Below are positions 19,374-47,600 of a DNA stretch of 64,000 nucleotides, piece after piece. The translations under genes were made by a program, and so were the position numbers. The notes beneath the pieces were generated by a model, which made no database searches, was not told the origin of the DNA, and saw only the letters and a program-made list of their open reading frames with translations. This DNA is from a phage, in sequence record PZ452584.1. One strand, written 5' to 3'. The first letter of the stretch is position 1. Every line of letters starts with the position of its first letter.

Positions 19374-19901
19374 TTATGCGAGTACCGTCTTTAACCGTTC
19401 TTCAAACTTCCGAAGAGTGTTCTGGCGTTCAGCTCTTTGCTTTTTGTAAGTTTCAATACGCTCTGAAATGAGAGTGTATCGTTCATTTACTGATTCTTTC
19501 ATAAAATCAGGAATTTCACGAGAAGCTTTAATCTCGTCAAATTTATCAATAACAGCTTGCTCTTCAGCAATTAAGTTATCATACATCAAAATATCTTTCT
19601 TGATGAACTCAATATCTTCTTGAGTTACACGAGATAATTTAGATGCTTTATCCTTTTTGTACTGTTCGTTAGTATCACGAGACCAGTGTAATGTACGATT
19701 TTTATTCGTATTTTTGTAAATTTCTACAATACCAATCTCATCGATAATAACGATCCAATTCCAACGGGATTTATAAATTTGTCCTCCATCAACCGTGATT
19801 TCACCTCCGATTGAGATGTCATTAAAGAACTTGCTTTGTGCTTCAGATTTAAATTTACCATCGTTGTAATTTACCAGGTTGAAAATATCTTTAGCATTCA
19901 T
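19374..19901 (-). CDS. Hypothetical protein
   Basis: Track ORF 19374-19961 trimmed to the Met (MNAKDIF...) downstream of the promoter at 19925-19960. Confidence 0.45.
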   Translation of the reverse strand: MNAKDIFNLVNYNDGKFKSEAQSKFFNDISIGGEITVDGGQIYKSRWNWIVIIDEIGIVEIYKNTNKNRTLHWSRDTNEQYKKDKASKLSRVTQEDIEFIKKDILMYDNLIAEEQAVIDKFDEIKASREIPDFMKESVNERYTLISERIETYKKQRAERQNTLRKFEERLKTVLA

Positions 19902-19924
19902 TTTCTGTTCCTCCGTAGTTGATA

Positions 19925-19960
19925 GTTGTATAGTACCACAGAGGAACGGTCTTGTAAACA
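19925..19960 (-). promoter_or_regulatory. Early promoter-like element (-35 GTTTAC, -10 region within tatagtaccacag)
   Basis: Plus-strand gttgatagttgtatagtaccacag...cttgtaaaca; same motif recurs at 21365, 26000, 37440. Confidence 0.5.
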
Positions 19961-29342: not shown

Positions 29343-29804
29343 TCATTGAGTTTTAATTACTGCTTTAGAAGCCTTTCCTGGTAAACGACGACTATTGATA
29401 ATTGCCATCCTGCACTGAAGTGACGGGTTTTTGAACTTCGCATTAGGTTTACAAACTGTAAATCCAAGCCAAAGATTTCCATCTGTGATTTCTAAACGTC
29501 CAGGACGATATTCAACCCCATCAATAAAATCCTCGTCAATGTCAGGACGCGGAGGCATACTCAGGAATTCATTAACTTCTAAAACATGGTCTTTTATTTT
29601 ATGGAATAATTCAAAAACATATGTCTCGTCAATCTCCCGTTGAATTGCACGATCAAGAAGATGCTGAGAATATTTTAGATGAAACGATGAGACCCCTGCT
29701 GCTTTTGATGCCTCACGAATCTCATTGTTAATTTGACGAAACTCCGACTCAAAGTGACGACGGAGCTTATTTCGACGGATAAAAACTTCTGTGTTGATAG
29801 TCAT
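29343..29804 (-). CDS. regB: Sequence-specific endoribonuclease RegB
   Basis: 153 aa beginning MTINTEVFIRRNKLRRHFESEFRQINNEIREASK, recognised as T4 RegB. Confidence 0.85.
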   Translation of the reverse strand: MTINTEVFIRRNKLRRHFESEFRQINNEIREASKAAGVSSFHLKYSQHLLDRAIQREIDETYVFELFHKIKDHVLEVNEFLSMPPRPDIDEDFIDGVEYRPGRLEITDGNLWLGFTVCKPNAKFKNPSLQCRMAIINSRRLPGKASKAVIKTQ

Positions 29805-29809
29805 GTTAT

Positions 29810-29860
29810 TCTCCTCTTAACTGATAGAAAAATTATACCACAGTCAAGAGGAAAAGTAAA
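29810..29860 (-). promoter_or_regulatory. Early promoter-like element upstream of regB
   Basis: ttataccacag...gaaaagtaaacag: minus-strand GTTTAC -35 with AT-rich -10. Confidence 0.4.
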
Positions 29861-31937: not shown

Positions 31938-32354
31938 TTAAATGTAAATATTTTTGCCGTAATACTTATACCAGTGCGGCTTCATTAAAATTTTTTCATC
32001 GAGTCGTTGTTGACTCAACCTAATAGCTGATTTGCATGGATTATAATCATTTTTCCATTCTACTGGAATATCACTGATGTCAGGAACTTCAGTATCTTTT
32101 ATACTAAACCTGCGTTTTAAGCATTCCGTTATAATGTCTGATTGACGCTTTCGCAAAAATTCTAACTTATCGTAAAAGAACGTAACATGACCAGAACCTA
32201 AAATAAACTCGGAAGATATTTTAAAATCTTTAACCCGTTTACCATTTTCCACGTGTTTACGAATTATACCAAAAACACGTGGCAATTCACGGTATTCCGC
32301 GATTAAATGTTGATCAGCAAGTTCAGATACTAAAGTCAAATTAATACGAGTCAT
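31938..32354 (-). CDS. denV: Endonuclease V (pyrimidine-dimer DNA glycosylase)
   Basis: 138 aa, [28 protein letters not shown]..., recognised as T4 DenV. Confidence 0.9.
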
Positions 32355-32359
32355 TTTAC

Positions 32360-32410
32360 CCCTCCAAGTAATTATGAATATACTATCACAATTCTAGGAG
32401 AAAGTAAACT
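32360..32410 (-). promoter_or_regulatory. Early promoter-like element upstream of denV
   Basis: atgaatatactatcacaattctaggagaaagtaaactg; near-identical copy at 33390-33445. Confidence 0.4.
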
Positions 32411-32411
32411 G

Positions 32412-32714
32412 TTATTTACCTTTAATTACTTTAGCTGCTTCGATAGCCGCTTGCTGAAGGTCATCCATAGACATACCGAATTTAGAAGCAAAGTTATCAA
32501 TTTTCTTTTCGACAGCATTCAAAGGCTTGGCCTGTTTACCTTCATTAGCGCCAGGAAGAGCGAGAATACGCTCTTTGTCAATATAAAGGCTTACAAGTTT
32601 CTTACGGTCTTTATCGGACAAATCATGAAATGAATGGGCCTTTTTATTTATAGCGGCTTCTAATTTACCTGCACTCACTCGCGCTTCAGTAATAAATTCT
32701 TGATATGTTTTCAT
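32412..32714 (-). CDS. ipII: Internal head protein IPII
   Basis: 100 aa with capsid-targeting leader MKTYQEFITEA. Confidence 0.85.
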   Translation of the reverse strand: MKTYQEFITEARVSAGKLEAAINKKAHSFHDLSDKDRKKLVSLYIDKERILALPGANEGKQAKPLNAVEKKIDNFASKFGMSMDDLQQAAIEAAKVIKGK

Positions 32715-32755
32715 ATGTTTCCTTTAAATGTAAATAGGTCTGAGTATTAGCTTTA

Positions 32756-33352
32756 TTAGGAATTACGGGCTGCATTAGCAACGGCGTAAGCGTACTGAAC
32801 ATTAGCGTCTTTAAACTTACCTTTAGAGGTATCTATTTCTGCCTTAAAGCCACCTTTAGTCATAACATCGGCAAATTCTTTACGGAAAGCCATTGCATCA
32901 AGACCTTTCCATGATGATTTATGCTTGGCAAATTCAAGACCTGCGAAGTTGACAGCTTTAGCCAATTTATTATCAATGACCCATTTACCGGCTTTAGGCA
33001 CAAACTTCGGGCCTTTCTGTTTAGAGAACAGTTTTAAATTCCAGCGGCGAAGGTCACTGTCGGCTTTAACAAAAGCTGCGTCTAAGTTACTAGCAACAAC
33101 ATCTTCAATATGAGCAAATTTAAGTCCGTCAACTTCAATATTTAAATCGGTACGCCAGCGAAGTCCTTCCCAAGCGAAGGCTTTAAAGTCGGAAGCCTTT
33201 GTAGCTAAGTACCGTTCAATAGGAGCTGTTTTAGGGTCAAAGCCGTTTCCTGGGCGGTCAACACCATTTCCTCGGTAGGTCCACTCATCTTTGTTAATGC
33301 CTTTGGCCTTTACTACAGAAGCTTCGGCAATAAATTCTTGATATGTTTTCAT
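32756..33352 (-). CDS. ipIII: Internal head protein IPIII
   Basis: 198 aa with leader MKTYQEFIAEA. Confidence 0.85.
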   Translation of the reverse strand: MKTYQEFIAEASVVKAKGINKDEWTYRGNGVDRPGNGFDPKTAPIERYLATKASDFKAFAWEGLRWRTDLNIEVDGLKFAHIEDVVASNLDAAFVKADSDLRRWNLKLFSKQKGPKFVPKAGKWVIDNKLAKAVNFAGLEFAKHKSSWKGLDAMAFRKEFADVMTKGGFKAEIDTSKGKFKDANVQYAYAVANAARNS

Positions 33353-33389
33353 ATGTTTCCTTTAAATGTAAATATTTTAATTAGTAATT

Positions 33390-33445
33390 GTCTATTCAAG
33401 TAATTGTGAATATACTATCACAGTTCCAAGAGAAAGTAAACAACT
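33390..33445 (-). promoter_or_regulatory. Early promoter-like element upstream of e
   Basis: gtgaatatactatcacagttccaagagaaagtaaacaactttatag. Confidence 0.4.
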
Positions 33446-34414
<969 letters not shown>

Positions 34415-40088: not shown

Positions 40089-40604
40089 TTAAAGCAAATT
40101 AAACATTTTAACTGCAGGTATTACAATTTCTTTTTCTATATAAGAGCATTTAACACTCTCAACTACACGCAAAAAATCATAATCATAATACTCAGAAGCA
40201 TTACCTAAAATATTAATAAGTCCTTCAAGCACTTTATTACCATTCACAAAGAATAAGTCAAATACACGTTCTTCGTCTTCTTCGGATTCATTACCAAAGT
40301 CAACTTCTATATCAAAGACCTTTTTAATGAATTCTGGATAAAGCTGGTCTGAGAACAGTCCTTCAACCAAGTATTCATAAATAAAAAGCGATTGCTCACT
40401 GAACAAGCCATTACCACAATAACGTTCAACTTTAGTATTAGAATGTCGGCTTTTAAACTTCTTTAAAAGATATTGGAACTGTAAGATTTCATGTTCTTTA
40501 ATTCCAAATATTGATTTAGTTTTATAATTATCACCATCATTTTCCCATGTAGTGACATCAATTACATAACCCTTAGGAATTGTACAGCCTAAACGAATAT
40601 TCAT
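40089..40604 (-). CDS. Hypothetical protein (variable region between tRNAs and ipI locus)
   Basis: 171-aa track ORF. Confidence 0.4.
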   Translation of the reverse strand: MNIRLGCTIPKGYVIDVTTWENDGDNYKTKSIFGIKEHEILQFQYLLKKFKSRHSNTKVERYCGNGLFSEQSLFIYEYLVEGLFSDQLYPEFIKKVFDIEVDFGNESEEDEERVFDLFFVNGNKVLEGLINILGNASEYYDYDFLRVVESVKCSYIEKEIVIPAVKMFNLL

Positions 40605-40897: not shown

Positions 40898-41317
40898 TTA
40901 CCCTTCATCAACAATAGTATGAGTGTGGGCATTTACAATTTGCCACCAATCAAAGCGATTAGAACCATACATTGGTTTGTTCTCATTTTCTTTGATAATG
41001 TTACGGAGTTCATCTTCGGTAGCGGCTTTCGCGATTAAATCAGCATATCCACCGCGAGGATAATAATTATCACCTGCAAAAAGTAAAAAGTTCGGTTTAA
41101 TATTATTGAACTCTTCAAGAGTAATAACTTTTCCTGTCGGTTGAACAATCTCTACATATTTATATCCTAATTTTTGAGCAGCATCTACTGCTTCAAGCAA
41201 AGTATCATGAGCCCATCCAATTTGACAACCTGGCTTTTCAGATGGATTAGCCTGATAATCCGCGTACACTTTATACATTCTATTCACCTTTAGAAATTTT
41301 ATCCATAACGATAGCAA
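40898..41317 (-). CDS. Hypothetical protein (start probably internal, MYKVYADYQ)
   Basis: Track ORF. Confidence 0.4.
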   Translation of the reverse strand: MLSLWIKFLKVNRMYKVYADYQANPSEKPGCQIGWAHDTLLEAVDAAQKLGYKYVEIVQPTGKVITLEEFNNIKPNFLLFAGDNYYPRGGYADLIAKAATEDELRNIIKENENKPMYGSNRFDWWQIVNAHTHTIVDEG

Positions 41318-41465
41318 TTAAACCAATTAAAAATGCTACTACAAGTGAAAACACATTTTCTGCTGTAGTCAATAATCCGCATATAAATCCAACAAACATT
41401 GAAAAACTAAAAGCAGAAGCAGAAATTGCAATAGCAACATTTCGAATTAATTCACAACGTTTCAT
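41280..41465 (-). CDS. Hypothetical small membrane protein
   Basis: 61 aa, two hydrophobic segments. Confidence 0.35.
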   Translation of the reverse strand: MKRCELIRNVAIAISASAFSFSMFVGFICGLLTTAENVFSLVVAFLIGLIAIVMDKISKGE

Positions 41466-41525
41466 TTTATTCTCCTCAGTAGTTGATAGGGTAATAGTAT
41501 CACTACTAAAACCCTATGTAAACAA
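41466..41525 (-). promoter_or_regulatory. PeSL-like early promoter with inverted repeat around the -10 region
   Basis: gatagggtaatagtatcactactaaaaccctatgtaaacaactttgtgaaattatttt: 7-bp stem atagggt/accctat flanking taatagtatcact; minus-strand GTTTAC -35. Confidence 0.55.
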
Positions 41526-41535
41526 CTTTGTGAAA

Positions 41536-41793
41536 TTATTTTAAATCTTCTAATCGTTTCTTCATCTTAGAACCATTTTTAGCGATTTCTCCTGCATCGG
41601 AGCATAATGCTAAAAGAGCTTTAACTTTAGTTTGGTCTCCTTTAAAAGATGAAGGATCGACTGCAGCAGCAAGTTCTTTAATACGAGAAAAAAGACGCTC
41701 AGCTTCAGCTAAAGCCATTCCAAGTTTTACTTCCATACCGTGGGAAGATTCAGTGATAGTAGTTTTTGTAGCAAACTCTTTGAAAGTTTTCAT
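41536..41793 (-). CDS. Internal-protein-like small protein at the ipI locus (sequence differs from T4 IPI as I recall it)
   Basis: 85 aa, leader-like MKTFKEFATKTTITE then helical body; bracketed by two near-identical promoter units. Confidence 0.5.
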   Translation of the reverse strand: MKTFKEFATKTTITESSHGMEVKLGMALAEAERLFSRIKELAAAVDPSSFKGDQTKVKALLALCSDAGEIAKNGSKMKKRLEDLK

Positions 41794-41799
41794 TTTATT

Positions 41800-41860
41800 T
41801 TCCTAATTAATTTTGATGAGGTAATAGTATCACTACCTCATCAGCATGTAAACAACTTTG
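41800..41860 (-). promoter_or_regulatory. PeSL-like early promoter with inverted repeat around the -10 region
   Basis: tgatgaggtaatagtatcactacctcatcagcatgtaaacaactttgtgaaattatttt: 9-bp stem tgatgaggt/acctcatca with same loop as the 41466 copy. Confidence 0.55.
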
Positions 41861-41865
41861 TGAAA

Positions 41866-42562
<697 letters not shown>

Positions 42563-42563
<1 letters not shown>

Positions 42564-43288
42564 TATAGTACCTTTAGTGTATTTTTAATTTTAGAAAAAA
42601 GTTCTTCAAGAGAACCATCGTTTGTAATTACTAAATCGCCATCACGAATTGGCAATCCAGCTTCTGTAATATGTATATCATTGGATTTTTGACCAGGACG
42701 AACTACATGAATTACTGTAGCACCCATCGCCCTAGCCGCATCCATTTCATGATCTTGACGGGTATCAGGAACGATATAATAATCATAACCTGAGTTAAAT
42801 TTATCAAGATAATCTAAAGCAAATAATTTTACCCAGTACATGCGGTCGAAGTTATTAACAATCAAATCCGTACCTAGGGCTTGCATCAGACGACGGACTG
42901 ACCATTGATCTTCAATATTATTTATAACGTCAGTAATCTTATTAAATGCTACGAAATTAACTGATTCTTTTCCTTCGTCATCAAAAACAAACACACCTTT
43001 GATTGGGCTTTTACCATTAAGATAGCAAAATGCTTGTTCCATAATCGTGATTACTTCTAATTTAGTCAGATTTAAATTAGTCTCACGATCATAGTCAATT
43101 CCTTCAAACTCTTTACGAGTTAAGCAAGGATAGTCAGTGTTTGCTGCAAATACTCCCCATGCATAAGCTAATGCATCCTTAATAGGACCAGCAAGTTGGT
43201 ATTTAACTGCAGAATAATTGCTCATGATAAAATCAGCAGTAGTATCTTTTCCACTACGCTTTACACCGCTTAAAAAGATTAGTTTCAT
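42563..43288 (-). CDS. 1: Deoxynucleoside monophosphate kinase
   Basis: MKLIFLSGVKRSGKDTTADFIM... P-loop; start set at the Met giving 241 aa (track ORF extends 13 codons upstream). Confidence 0.9.
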
Positions 43289-45889: not shown

Positions 45890-47600
45890 TAGCCTTAATT
45901 GGTTTGTTGGTGTTGTTGAAGATAGAATGGACCCATTAAAATTAGGTCGTGTTCGTGTTCGTGTGGTTGGTCTGCATCCACCCCAAAGAGCACAAGGCGA
46001 TGTAATGGGTATTCCAACTGATAAATTGCCATGGATGTCAGTTATTCAACCGATAACTTCTGCAGCAATGTCTGGAATTGGAGGTTCTGTTACAGGGCCA
46101 GTAGAAGGAACTAGAGTATATGGTCATTTTTTAGACAAATGGAAAACTAACGGAATTGTCCTTGGCACTTATGGCGGAATAGTTCGCGAAAAACCTAATA
46201 GACTTGAAGGATTTTCTGACCCAACTGGACAGTATCCTAGACGTCTAGGAAATGATACTAACGTATTAAACCAAGGCGGAGAAGTAGGATATGATTCGTC
46301 TTCTAATATTATCCAAGATAGCAATCTAGACACTGCGATAAATCCCGATGATAGACCGCTATCAGAGATTCCAACTGATGATAATCCAAATATGTCAATG
46401 GCTGAAATGCTTCGCCGTGATGAAGGATTAAGACTAAAAGTTTATTGGGATACCGAAGGATATCCGACAATTGGTATTGGTCATCTTATCATGAAGCAGC
46501 CAGTTCGTGATATGACCCAAATTAATAAAGTTTTATCAAAACAAGTTGGTCGTGAAATTACTGGAAACCCAGGTTCTATTACAATGGAAGAGGCGACAGC
46601 TTTATTTGAGCGTGATTTGGCTGATATGCAACGGGACATTAAATCACATTCTAAAGTAGGACCAGTCTGGCAAGCTGTCAACCGTTCTCGTCAAATGGCA
46701 TTAGAAAATATGGCATTTCAGATGGGTGTTGGTGGTGTTGCTAAATTTAACACAATGTTAACTGCTATGTTAGCCGGAGATTGGGAAAAAGCATATAAAG
46801 CCGGTCGTGATTCATTGTGGTATCAACAAACAAAAGGCCGTGCATCCCGTGTTACCATGATTATTCTTACGGGAAATTTAGAATCATATGGTGTTGAAGT
46901 GAAAACCCCAGCTAGGTCTCTATCAGCAATGGCTGCTACTGTAGCTAAATCTTCTGACCCTGCTGACCCTCCTATTCCAAATGACTCGAGAATTTTATTC
47001 AAAGAACCAGTTTCTTCATATAAAGGTGAATATCCTTATGTGCATACAATGGAAACTGAAAGCGGACATATTCAGGAATTTGATGATACCCCTGGGCAAG
47101 AACGATACAGATTAGTTCATCCAACTGGAACTTATGAAGAAGTATCACCGTCAGGAAGAAGAACAAGAAAAACTGTTGATAATTTGTATGATATAACCAA
47201 CGCTGATGGTAATTTTTTGGTAGCCGGTGATAAAAAGACTAACGTCGGTGGATCAGAAATTTATTACAACATGGATAATCGTCTTCACCAGATAGATGGA
47301 AGCAATACAATATTTGTACGTGGCGACGAAACGAAAACTGTTGAAGGTAATGGAACTATCCTAGTCAAAGGTAATGTTACTATTGTAGTTGAAGGTAATG
47401 CTGATATTACAGTTAAAGGAGATGCTACCACTTTAGTTGAAGGAAATCAAACTAATACAGTAAATGGAAATCTTTCTTGGAAAGTTGCTGGGACAGTTGA
47501 TTGGGACGTTGGTGGTGATTGGACAGAAAAAATGGCATCTATGAGTTCTATTTCATCTGGTCAATACACAATTGATGGATCGAGGATTGACATTGGCTAA
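45873..47600 (+). CDS. 5: Baseplate central spike / cell-puncturing protein gp5 with lysozyme domain
   Basis: 575 aa; OB-fold N-terminus, internal lysozyme block MSMAEMLRRDEGLRLKVYWDTEGYPTIGIGHL, C-terminal beta-helix repeats (VEGN.T..V.GN). Confidence 0.95.
   Translation: MEMISNSLNWFVGVVEDRMDPLKLGRVRVRVVGLHPPQRAQGDVMGIPTDKLPWMSVIQPITSAAMSGIGGSVTGPVEGTRVYGHFLDKWKTNGIVLGTYGGIVREKPNRLEGFSDPTGQYPRRLGNDTNVLNQGGEVGYDSSSNIIQDSNLDTAINPDDRPLSEIPTDDNPNMSMAEMLRRDEGLRLKVYWDTEGYPTIGIGHLIMKQPVRDMTQINKVLSKQVGREITGNPGSITMEEATALFERDLADMQRDIKSHSKVGPVWQAVNRSRQMALENMAFQMGVGGVAKFNTMLTAMLAGDWEKAYKAGRDSLWYQQTKGRASRVTMIILTGNLESYGVEVKTPARSLSAMAATVAKSSDPADPPIPNDSRILFKEPVSSYKGEYPYVHTMETESGHIQEFDDTPGQERYRLVHPTGTYEEVSPSGRRTRKTVDNLYDITNADGNFLVAGDKKTNVGGSEIYYNMDNRLHQIDGSNTIFVRGDETKTVEGNGTILVKGNVTIVVEGNADITVKGDATTLVEGNQTNTVNGNLSWKVAGTVDWDVGGDWTEKMASMSSISSGQYTIDGSRIDIG

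Follow-up and report, generated by a model that had tools for sequence, protein, structure and literature searches.

What has taken the place of ipI in this T4-like phage, and why is the gene found there bracketed by two promoter copies whose inverted repeats differ in sequence but remain self-complementary? We addressed this in a 64,000-nucleotide (nt) stretch of phage DNA (record PZ452584.1; hereafter the window), which is assigned to Tequatrovirus and in which the genes of the locus all lie on the - strand. We consider it very likely that the window carries the polymorphic ipI locus of Tequatrovirus, occupied by one known cassette, the internal protein (IP) gene ip5, between promoter/hairpin units that recombine with one another. 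The gene itself comprises the following features:

41536-41793, - strand: ip5 open reading frame (ORF), 85 amino acids, between 57B and trna.4
41749-41793, - strand: ip5 leader, MKTFKEFATKTTITE, a capsid-targeting sequence with predicted cleavage by gp21 (the prohead protease) after I-T-E15
41536-41748, - strand: mature Ip5 part, 70 amino acids (SSHGMEV…RLEDLK) plus stop; the block replaced relative to T4 ipI

The ORF and the translation quoted for it in a first-pass annotation of this DNA are both confirmed. When compared with the IP variants of T-even phages, as that annotation had proposed, the product is found to be 100% identical to Ip5 of RB32, RB14, T6 and IME537 and 99% identical to Ip5 of T2, and it matches phrog_3499 (internal head protein) with an E value of 1e-49. 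RB32 annotates the matching gene as "Ip5 … similar to RB15 T6 T2 RB70 Ip5 … replaces ipI", the name Ip5 is also used in the ime09, RB14, RB51 and CM8 records, and UniRef calls the T2 and RB70 proteins 'Ip5'. Judged by its sequence, the ORF is thus the already catalogued ip5, an internal head protein gene of T2/T6-type phages. The name Ip5 for these T-even proteins (T2, T6, RB15, RB70, RB32, RB14, RB51) reportedly goes back to Repoila et al. 1994, and the Comeau/Krisch and Karam groups are said to have annotated them.

The capsid-targeting-like leader that had been noticed is present. Residues 1-7 of the Ip5 N terminus (MKTFKEFATK) are the same as in T4 IPI, and alignment of the Ip5 leader (MKTFKEFATKT----TITE) to the IPI leader (MKTFKEFTSTTTPVSTITE) places I13-T14-E15 against ITE19 of IPI. 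The T4 prohead protease follows the rule (L/I)xE, on the basis of which Ip5 would be cleaved at this site. Every ip gene in 11 fetched loci starts with MKT[FY][KQ]EF, and the ITE motif is invariant in the Ip5 alignment, the Mosigvirus homologue having LNE. Past the leader the similarity to IPI ends: BLASTP aligns residues 1-22 only, i.e. the leader, and the two proteins fall into separate PHROGs (phrog_3499 for Ip5, PHROG 4363 for IPI). The body is hence unlike T4 IPI, as had been supposed, and a canonical IPI homologue was not seen. When the window is aligned with T4 DNA, the flanks are nearly identical (scattered mismatches) and the bodies are unrelated; the two sequences part within the leader and stay divergent as far as the stop codon. 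A different IP gene does occupy the ipI position downstream of 57B, and on these alignments ip5 for ipI is a clean cassette substitution.

The Ip5 family is very small. At ≥90% identity it is found in 269 phage records (Tequatrovirus), and another 226 records have a homologue of 54% identity, those fetched being Mosigvirus. A HMMER search of 1.84 billion representatives returned only the Tequatrovirus cluster and one 94-amino-acid relative (P0006, 48% identical), equal in length to the Mosigvirus homologue. In Shigella phage phi25-307 (our locus L025:1938-2219), the homologue keeps the leader and the (I/L)xE site (MKTYSEFLSESILNE) and belongs to the e-denV locus, where it comes immediately downstream of e, the lysozyme gene. 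The two genes overlap, the last bases of e sharing the ATG of the homologue (…TATATATGAAAAC), and the homologue lacks a promoter unit of its own, which suggests late, translationally coupled expression in a context unlike the Tequatrovirus cassette.

The second half of our question concerns the sequences on either side of ip5, where the promoters were located by a consensus scan:

41794-41881, - strand: upstream unit (57B to ip5), with stop-codon region, AT-rich stretch, early promoter, hairpin, Shine-Dalgarno (SD) sequence AGGAAAA and ATG
41824-41852, - strand: early promoter B, -35 TTTACA at 41847-41852, 17-nt spacer, -10 TACTAT at 41824-41829
41814-41843, - strand: hairpin B, UGAUGAGGUAGUG / AUAC / UAUUACCUCAUCA, 13 bp (10 Watson-Crick plus G.U, U-A, G.U)
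41466-41551, - strand: downstream unit (ip5 to trna.4), with ip5 end codons (E-D-L-K-stop), early promoter, hairpin, SD (GAGGAG) and the trna.4 ATG
41494-41522, - strand: early promoter A, -35 TTTACA at 41517-41522, 17-nt spacer, -10 TACTAT at 41494-41499
41486-41517, - strand: hairpin A, AUAGGGU-UU-UAGUA / GUGA / UACUA-UU-ACCCUAU, in which a 2x2 internal loop separates the outer stem (7 bp) from the inner one (5 bp)

The core TAATAGTATCACT-N13-GTAAACAACTTTGTGAAATTATTTTA is found in exactly two copies in 64 kb (41492-41543 and 41822-41873); apart from the 13-nt block the copies agree throughout (0 mismatches), and 100 shuffles gave no match. The claim of two flanking promoter copies with identical cores, both TTTACA-17-TACTAT, is therefore upheld. 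The whole direct repeat measures 69 nt at 86% identity (41483-41551 and 41813-41881), so that the upstream copy reaches 41881, about 16 nt beyond the end at 41865 that had been given to the locus, and the final 57B codons (…D-D-L-K-stop) already lie inside the repeat unit. Read on the gene strand, each unit consists of the preceding gene's …D-L-K-stop, TTTCACAAAGTTG, TTTACA, 17 nt, TACTAT, the 3' arm of the hairpin, the ribosome-binding site (RBS) and an ATG. TG immediately precedes the -10 box in both units, and the sequence upstream is AT-rich (TTTAAAATAATTTCACAAAGTTG). Both units fit the T4/PST PeSL promoter consensus TTTACW-N17-TAYWAT (Comeau et al. 2014, PMC4122927). Going by spacing, transcription is predicted to start about 7 nt past the -10 box, within the 3' arm (for promoter B, around the A at 41817; for promoter A, around 41487). 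Two differences separate the upstream unit from the intergenic region between 57B and ipI in T4, and the downstream unit, from the motif TTTCACAAAG on, is almost the same as the T4 unit between ipI and trna.4. As the sequences show, each flanking unit supplies its cassette with a putative strong early promoter of its own.

The same design recurs across relatives. The first eleven ip-array loci to be fetched (RB32, T4, RB14, T6, T2, IME537, CM8, ECO07P3, LF82-35, ST0 and ATK47) all have TTTACW-N17-TAYWAT and a hairpin around the -10 box in each intergenic region, and the KP179 and Bp7 loci, fetched later, follow suit. IMG/VR contributed 13 stretches with the unit, the comparative set being mainly GenBank phages.

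Both inverted repeats share one geometry, in which one arm lies in the promoter spacer and the other begins right after the -10 box; in hairpin B the -10 box occupies the loop and the 3' arm. The tgatgaggt/acctcatca arms of the upstream unit extend to a 10-bp perfect repeat (41814-41823 / 41834-41843), and the atagggt/accctat arms of the downstream unit map to 41486-41492 / 41511-41517. Hairpin B folds at -16.4 kcal/mol (z -5.45) and hairpin A at -14.5 kcal/mol (z -3.86), in each case with none of 200 shuffles as stable (shuffle means -4.3 and -5.4 kcal/mol, respectively). Stems of at least 7 bp bracketing the -10 box are seen at two of the 20 early-promoter-like sites in the window, namely the ip5 units, and the others reach at most 6 bp. 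Hairpin B is also found in T4, RB32, RB14, CM8, IME537 and ECO07P3, and in T2 and T6 a C-to-U change gives a G.U pair; hairpin A is kept in T4, RB32, T6 and CM8 and is weaker in IME537, CM8 and ECO07P3 variants. At least seven sequence versions of the arms are distinguished in four genera (Tequatrovirus, Mosigvirus, Jiaodavirus and Dhakavirus), and their position with respect to the -10 box does not vary:

Versions 1 and 2: the two hairpins of the window
Further version: GAUAGGGUAGUG/UAUUACCCUAUC, before trna.4 in multi-cassette phages
Mosigvirus versions: AGGAUGAUGGUG/UACUAUCAUCCU and AUAGGACUAU/GUAGUCCUAU
Further versions: one in Jiaodavirus KP179 and one in Dhakavirus Bp7

Energies are about -12 to -17 kcal/mol for six versions, and 37-nt segments reach -18.5 kcal/mol; for five versions the hairpin was folded by itself, giving -12.2 to -16.4 kcal/mol, and those of Jiaodavirus and Dhakavirus were folded solely as part of longer segments.

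The first-pass annotation had described the two stems as different yet complementary through compensatory changes. Complementarity holds for both copies. The 5' arm occupies spacer positions 10-22 in one window copy and 6-19 in the other, and because of these different registers the copies are better described as two self-complementary versions than as products of mutual, position-by-position compensatory substitution. Position-wise covariation emerges only when other phages are added: in an alignment of 16 sequences from three versions with one register (register 49), 93.3% of the cells are paired, compared with 31-41% when one arm is slid by 1-2 columns, both sides have changed in six of the 13 pairs, and none of 500 shuffles reaches the observed values. 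The earlier suggestion of selection on the hairpin thus gains support, and comparison of these sequences supports a constraint on it across phages. In 29 of 31 unit variants the fold of the sense RNA is more stable than that of the antisense, an advantage owed mainly to fixed G.U pairs and one that leans towards a role at the RNA level.

Comparison of the arrays also bears on how the cassettes move. Between 57B and trna.4 there is no ip gene in KP179, one in T4 and the window, two in RB14, T2 and T6, and three in RB32, with an overall range from 0 to at least 5 cassettes. Ip5 is the sole cassette in this phage, RB51, ime09 and pSs-1, and is followed by one or two extra ip genes in T2, T6, RB14 and RB32. 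KP179 (L027, 1524-1620) has an 'empty' site, a single unit between 57B and trna.4 with no ip gene; Shigella phage CM8 (L007, 586-2708) carries a tandem duplication of truncated 57B + ip5 + ipI joined at the promoter unit; and in Klebsiella phage ValerieMcCarty01 (L029, 1416-1620) the promoter unit and the first ~40 nt of trna.4 are tandemly duplicated. Chimeric units, with the 5' half of one type and the 3' half of another, separate ip5 from ipI in RB14, ip5 from ip7 in T2 and ip9 from ip7 in RB32, with a further example in L019, and point to crossovers inside the unit. From this comparison we infer recombination between units. With the unit and the shared leader codons, every ip gene is flanked on either side by ~70-110 bp that are nearly the same, and T4-type homologous recombination via these flanks could replace, add, delete or duplicate cassettes.

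What might the cassette do? IPs are injected anti-restriction proteins that share the leader only (PMC3012670; PMC12373910), and T4 IPI is an injected inhibitor of the GmrS/GmrD type IV restriction system (PMC3012670; PMC12373910). Ip1, Ip2 and Ip3 each inhibit one GmrSD variant (Silas et al. 2025, PMC12373910). An AlphaFold2 model of Ip5 (pLDDT 69, moderate confidence) predicts a two-helix hairpin (helices 17-44 and 54-84, no strands). Foldseek searches with this model against the PDB and BFVD gave only generic helical hairpins with E values above 0.1, and sequence searches of Pfam, PADLOC and the PDB gave no significant match. By analogy with T4 IPI, the capsid-targeting leader would carry Ip5 into the prohead core, the prohead protease would cut after ITE15, and a 70-residue, probably two-helix protein would go into the head along with the DNA and be injected into the next host, where it would most likely neutralise a host defence protein. 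That a replaced IP could target a different defence, as the first-pass annotation had proposed, is reasonable by this analogy and matches the view of the field (PMC12373910; PMC3012670).

For the hairpin, we propose that RNA arriving from upstream would fold a structure of about -12 to -17 kcal/mol between the cistrons. Transcripts from the embedded promoter would be free of it, since their predicted start lies inside the 3' arm and the 5' arm is missing, so that only read-through RNA would fold; on that RNA the hairpin would probably serve as a barrier stabilising the 3' end, as an attenuator or as a signal for processing. The combined proposition, a dedicated sense-RNA read-through signal in at least four Tevenvirinae genera and an Ip5 that is an injected inhibitor acting beyond the GmrSD variants tested, is one we advance tentatively, its chances being clearly less than even. 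If true, the hairpin could aid processing or stability while distal late promoters give abundant IP mRNA and each cassette keeps its early promoter.

Several points weigh against our reading of the locus. Taken alone, the downstream-type unit covaries no more than expected by chance (of 500 shuffles, 153-390 equal the observed values, depending on the measure), and weak natural units fold at -4 to -8 kcal/mol (chimeras; IME537, ECO07P3 and T2 variants), which suggests that the hairpin is favoured yet dispensable. Both facts, the weak or broken stems occurring in apparently viable phages, also speak for functionless complementarity, produced by templated (quasi-palindrome) mutation and repeated unit recombination and simply harmless. 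Such templated mutation is reportedly well documented in T4 by Ripley and co-workers, and types 3 and 4 resemble a block rearrangement (ATAGGGT+TTTAG versus TTTAG+ATAGGGT). We nevertheless regard an origin without function as improbable: templated correction predicts perfect Watson-Crick arms, whereas most stems hold fixed G.U pairs; seven unrelated arm sequences place stems at the same position in four genera, with the energies given above for the six folded; and other early promoters of the genome with the same -35 and -10 boxes have no such stems.

Nor does either hairpin qualify as an intrinsic terminator, as no U-tract follows them (CAAAAUUAAUUAGG and CAACUACUGAGG come after the 3' arms) and none was called at either unit. 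Stem substitution events, of which about five give G.U and three or four give A.C, leave the choice between RNA and DNA level undecided by count. The want of a clear G.U excess over A.C fits a role in the DNA, where the repeat could be a cruciform, a single-strand hairpin or a site for a dimeric protein and act as an exchange hot spot (e.g. for endonuclease VII) or in promoter modulation. The crossovers in chimeric units do fall between the arms, the upstream unit contains its 10-bp perfect Watson-Crick repeat, and there is a parallel in RB49, where mini-circle junctions lie within the PeSL stem-loop and Arbiol et al. speculate on a DNA-binding protein targeting it (PMC2839356). Such a DNA-level role seems to us rather unlikely, as the inner stems mostly need G.U pairs, which are G.T or A.C mismatches in DNA, and the antisense strand is the weaker in 29 of 31 units. 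The arms are moreover wholly different between types, leaving no shared protein site except the -10 core, no recombinase is encoded in or beside the array, and the short homology that suffices for T4 recombination is already supplied by the flanks.

Further counterpoints concern Ip5. Its packaging and injection are proposed from the leader and from analogy with IPI, and in the only published test that we found, ip4-10 gave no reproducible inhibition of further GmrSD variants (PMC12373910). No late promoter (TATAAATA) lies directly upstream of ip5, the nearest on the same strand being at 42919-42926 inside gene 1; late synthesis of Ip5 must therefore be assumed, and T4 ipI shares that upstream sequence. 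Ip5 could accordingly be an early cytoplasmic protein that merely kept an IP-like N terminus after recombining into the locus and is not packaged, a view to which the early promoter standing alone upstream lends itself, and our literature search turned up no virion proteomics for Ip5. We think this very improbable, since the upstream region, with its two differences, is that of T4 ipI, whose product is a proven virion protein (PMC3012670), and since leader and (I/L)xE site are kept even in the 54%-identical Mosigvirus homologue located after the late gene e.

Other candidate functions of the units were rejected. An RBS-occluding hairpin of the gene e / soc type is excluded for both ip5-flanking units because the stems end ~10 nt ahead of the SD sequence. 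A search of Rfam 15 for known RNA families gave only two chance-level matches (E 0.5-0.7, well under the gathering scores). A MotA-box middle promoter, suggested by an ATGCTGA in the spacer that is correctly spaced from the -10 box, was set aside because T4 and T2 have ATACTGA there.

Three other early-promoter-like sites on the - strand, with -35 boxes at 29860, 19958 and 32408, are associated with hairpins of a different layout (~29795-29860, 19895-19958 and 32355-32408), in which the spacer contributes the 5' arm and the 3' arm spans the downstream SD sequence (e.g. GUUCCUCUGUGGU…ACUACGGAGGAAC). Their energies are -21.4, -19.4 and -16.8 kcal/mol (z -5.8, -4.7 and -3.2), and from their position these hairpins would hide the RBS in read-through RNA, not in transcripts from the embedded promoters. 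Mosigvirus has a different, equally complementary version of the denV-upstream hairpin, CUUCCUCCAAG…CUUGGAGGAA (L025:2220-2280). The window also contains a second IP locus:

31938-33940, - strand: second IP locus
33446-33940, - strand: gene e
32756-33352, - strand: ipIII-like gene, 198 amino acids
32412-32714, - strand: ipII-like gene, 100 amino acids
31938-32354, - strand: denV

A 54-nt repeat (32683-32736 and 33321-33374; 96% identity), which takes in the leader codons, precedes both the ipII-like and the ipIII-like gene, and an early-promoter repeat follows ipII (32365-32409) and e (33397-33441).

The order on the - strand is gene 1 (dNMP kinase), 57A, 57B, ip5, trna.4, trna.3, trna.2, an extra ORF and the tRNA cluster. 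Across 41280-42324, identity to Shigella phage pSs-1, to the Escherichia phages ime09 and EO1 and to RB32/RB33 amounts to 98-99%, and 781 phage records match this region at least in part. The two ends of the region are conserved anchors:

41866-42324, - strand: 57B (so named in the RB32 and T4 annotations), anchor on the upstream side of the ip array; phrog_755
41280-41465, - strand: trna.4 homologue, downstream anchor, 61 amino acids, predicted membrane protein; tRNA.4 in RB32 and T4; phrog_1692

57B matches Pfam PF23474, Acb1 (anti-CBASS nuclease), with an E value of 2.7e-60, which places the ip array directly beside a proven anti-defence gene. Its homologues are still labelled 'RNA ligase' or 'hypothetical' in many phage records. 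The extra ORF between trna.2 and the tRNA cluster (40089-40604, - strand, 171 amino acids, phrog_2290) is present in RB32 (ORF135c) and T2 and missing from the fetched T4, RB14 and T6 loci, a further presence/absence polymorphism within the same hyperplastic region. Elsewhere in the window, a 24-nt periodic repeat (GTTGAAGGTAATG…) is present in five overlapping copies at 47340-47483 (+ strand) and encodes a V-x-G-x-x-x-x-x repeat; this resembles the beta-helix of the gp5 cell-puncturing needle and is probably ordinary.

The gene and its promoter/stem-loop repeats with variable stems are already known, the one having been named Ip5 and the others discussed in the literature as PeSL-like elements, and the arrangement is ordinary for this phage group, a textbook case of T-even IP-locus polymorphism. 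Our additions are modest detail and do not amount to a novel class of element. They concern the placing of the hairpin around the -10 box, its predicted restriction to read-through RNA, the seven versions of its arms in four genera, the covariation within one register, and a catalogue of the chimeric units. Injected IPs are front-line anti-defence weapons of T-even phages, and Ip5, being widely carried (at least 269 Tequatrovirus records) and without an assigned target, is a sensible candidate for defence-inhibitor screens. The promoter/hairpin units provide a compact natural example of cassette shuffling through short regulatory repeats.

How does this locus compare with known systems? It shows no substantive difference from Ip5 of T-even phages, where the gene has the same position directly downstream of 57B and the same flanking units. 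T4 IPI and Ip5 share locus, promoter, ribosome-binding region and the homologous leader MKTFKEF…ITE and are of similar size (95 and 85 amino acids, respectively), but have mature parts without detectable similarity. IPI* adopts a compact fold of two beta-sheets and terminal helices (PMC3012670), whereas Ip5 is predicted to be an all-alpha two-helix hairpin.

Elsewhere in T4, the gene e, soc, 49 and I-TevI hairpins arise from a comparable arrangement, the promoter lying within the hairpin so that only read-through RNA folds. These hairpins separate read-through from promoter-proximal transcripts. They hide the RBS and their embedded promoter is late, whereas the promoter of the ip5 units is early and RBS occlusion is not predicted.

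The elements of the IP locus have been described as PeSL-like, sitting on T4 early promoters and having AT-rich stem-loops of variable size (Arbiol et al. 2010, PMC2839356; PMC4122927); Arbiol et al. credit Repoila et al. 1994 for them (PMC2839356), which is repeated in Comeau et al. 2014 (PMC4122927), and regard them as analogues, not homologues, of PeSLs (PMC2839356). The stem-loop of a PeSL precedes the promoter, is frequently G/C-rich and has been shown to terminate transcription, whereas that of the ip5 units lies over the spacer, the -10 box and position +1, is AT-rich with G.U pairs, and has no U-tract. In common with PeSLs, the ip5 units have a sigma-70-type early promoter with AT-rich upstream sequence, and repeated copies that flank variable ORFs. 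PeSLs (RB49/phi1, PST/T4, nt-1/KVP40) and ip5 units are thus both short intergenic composites, made up of a stem-loop and an early promoter, whose copies surround variable ORFs that are not essential; in both, insertions, deletions and swaps are accounted for by recombination from one copy to another.

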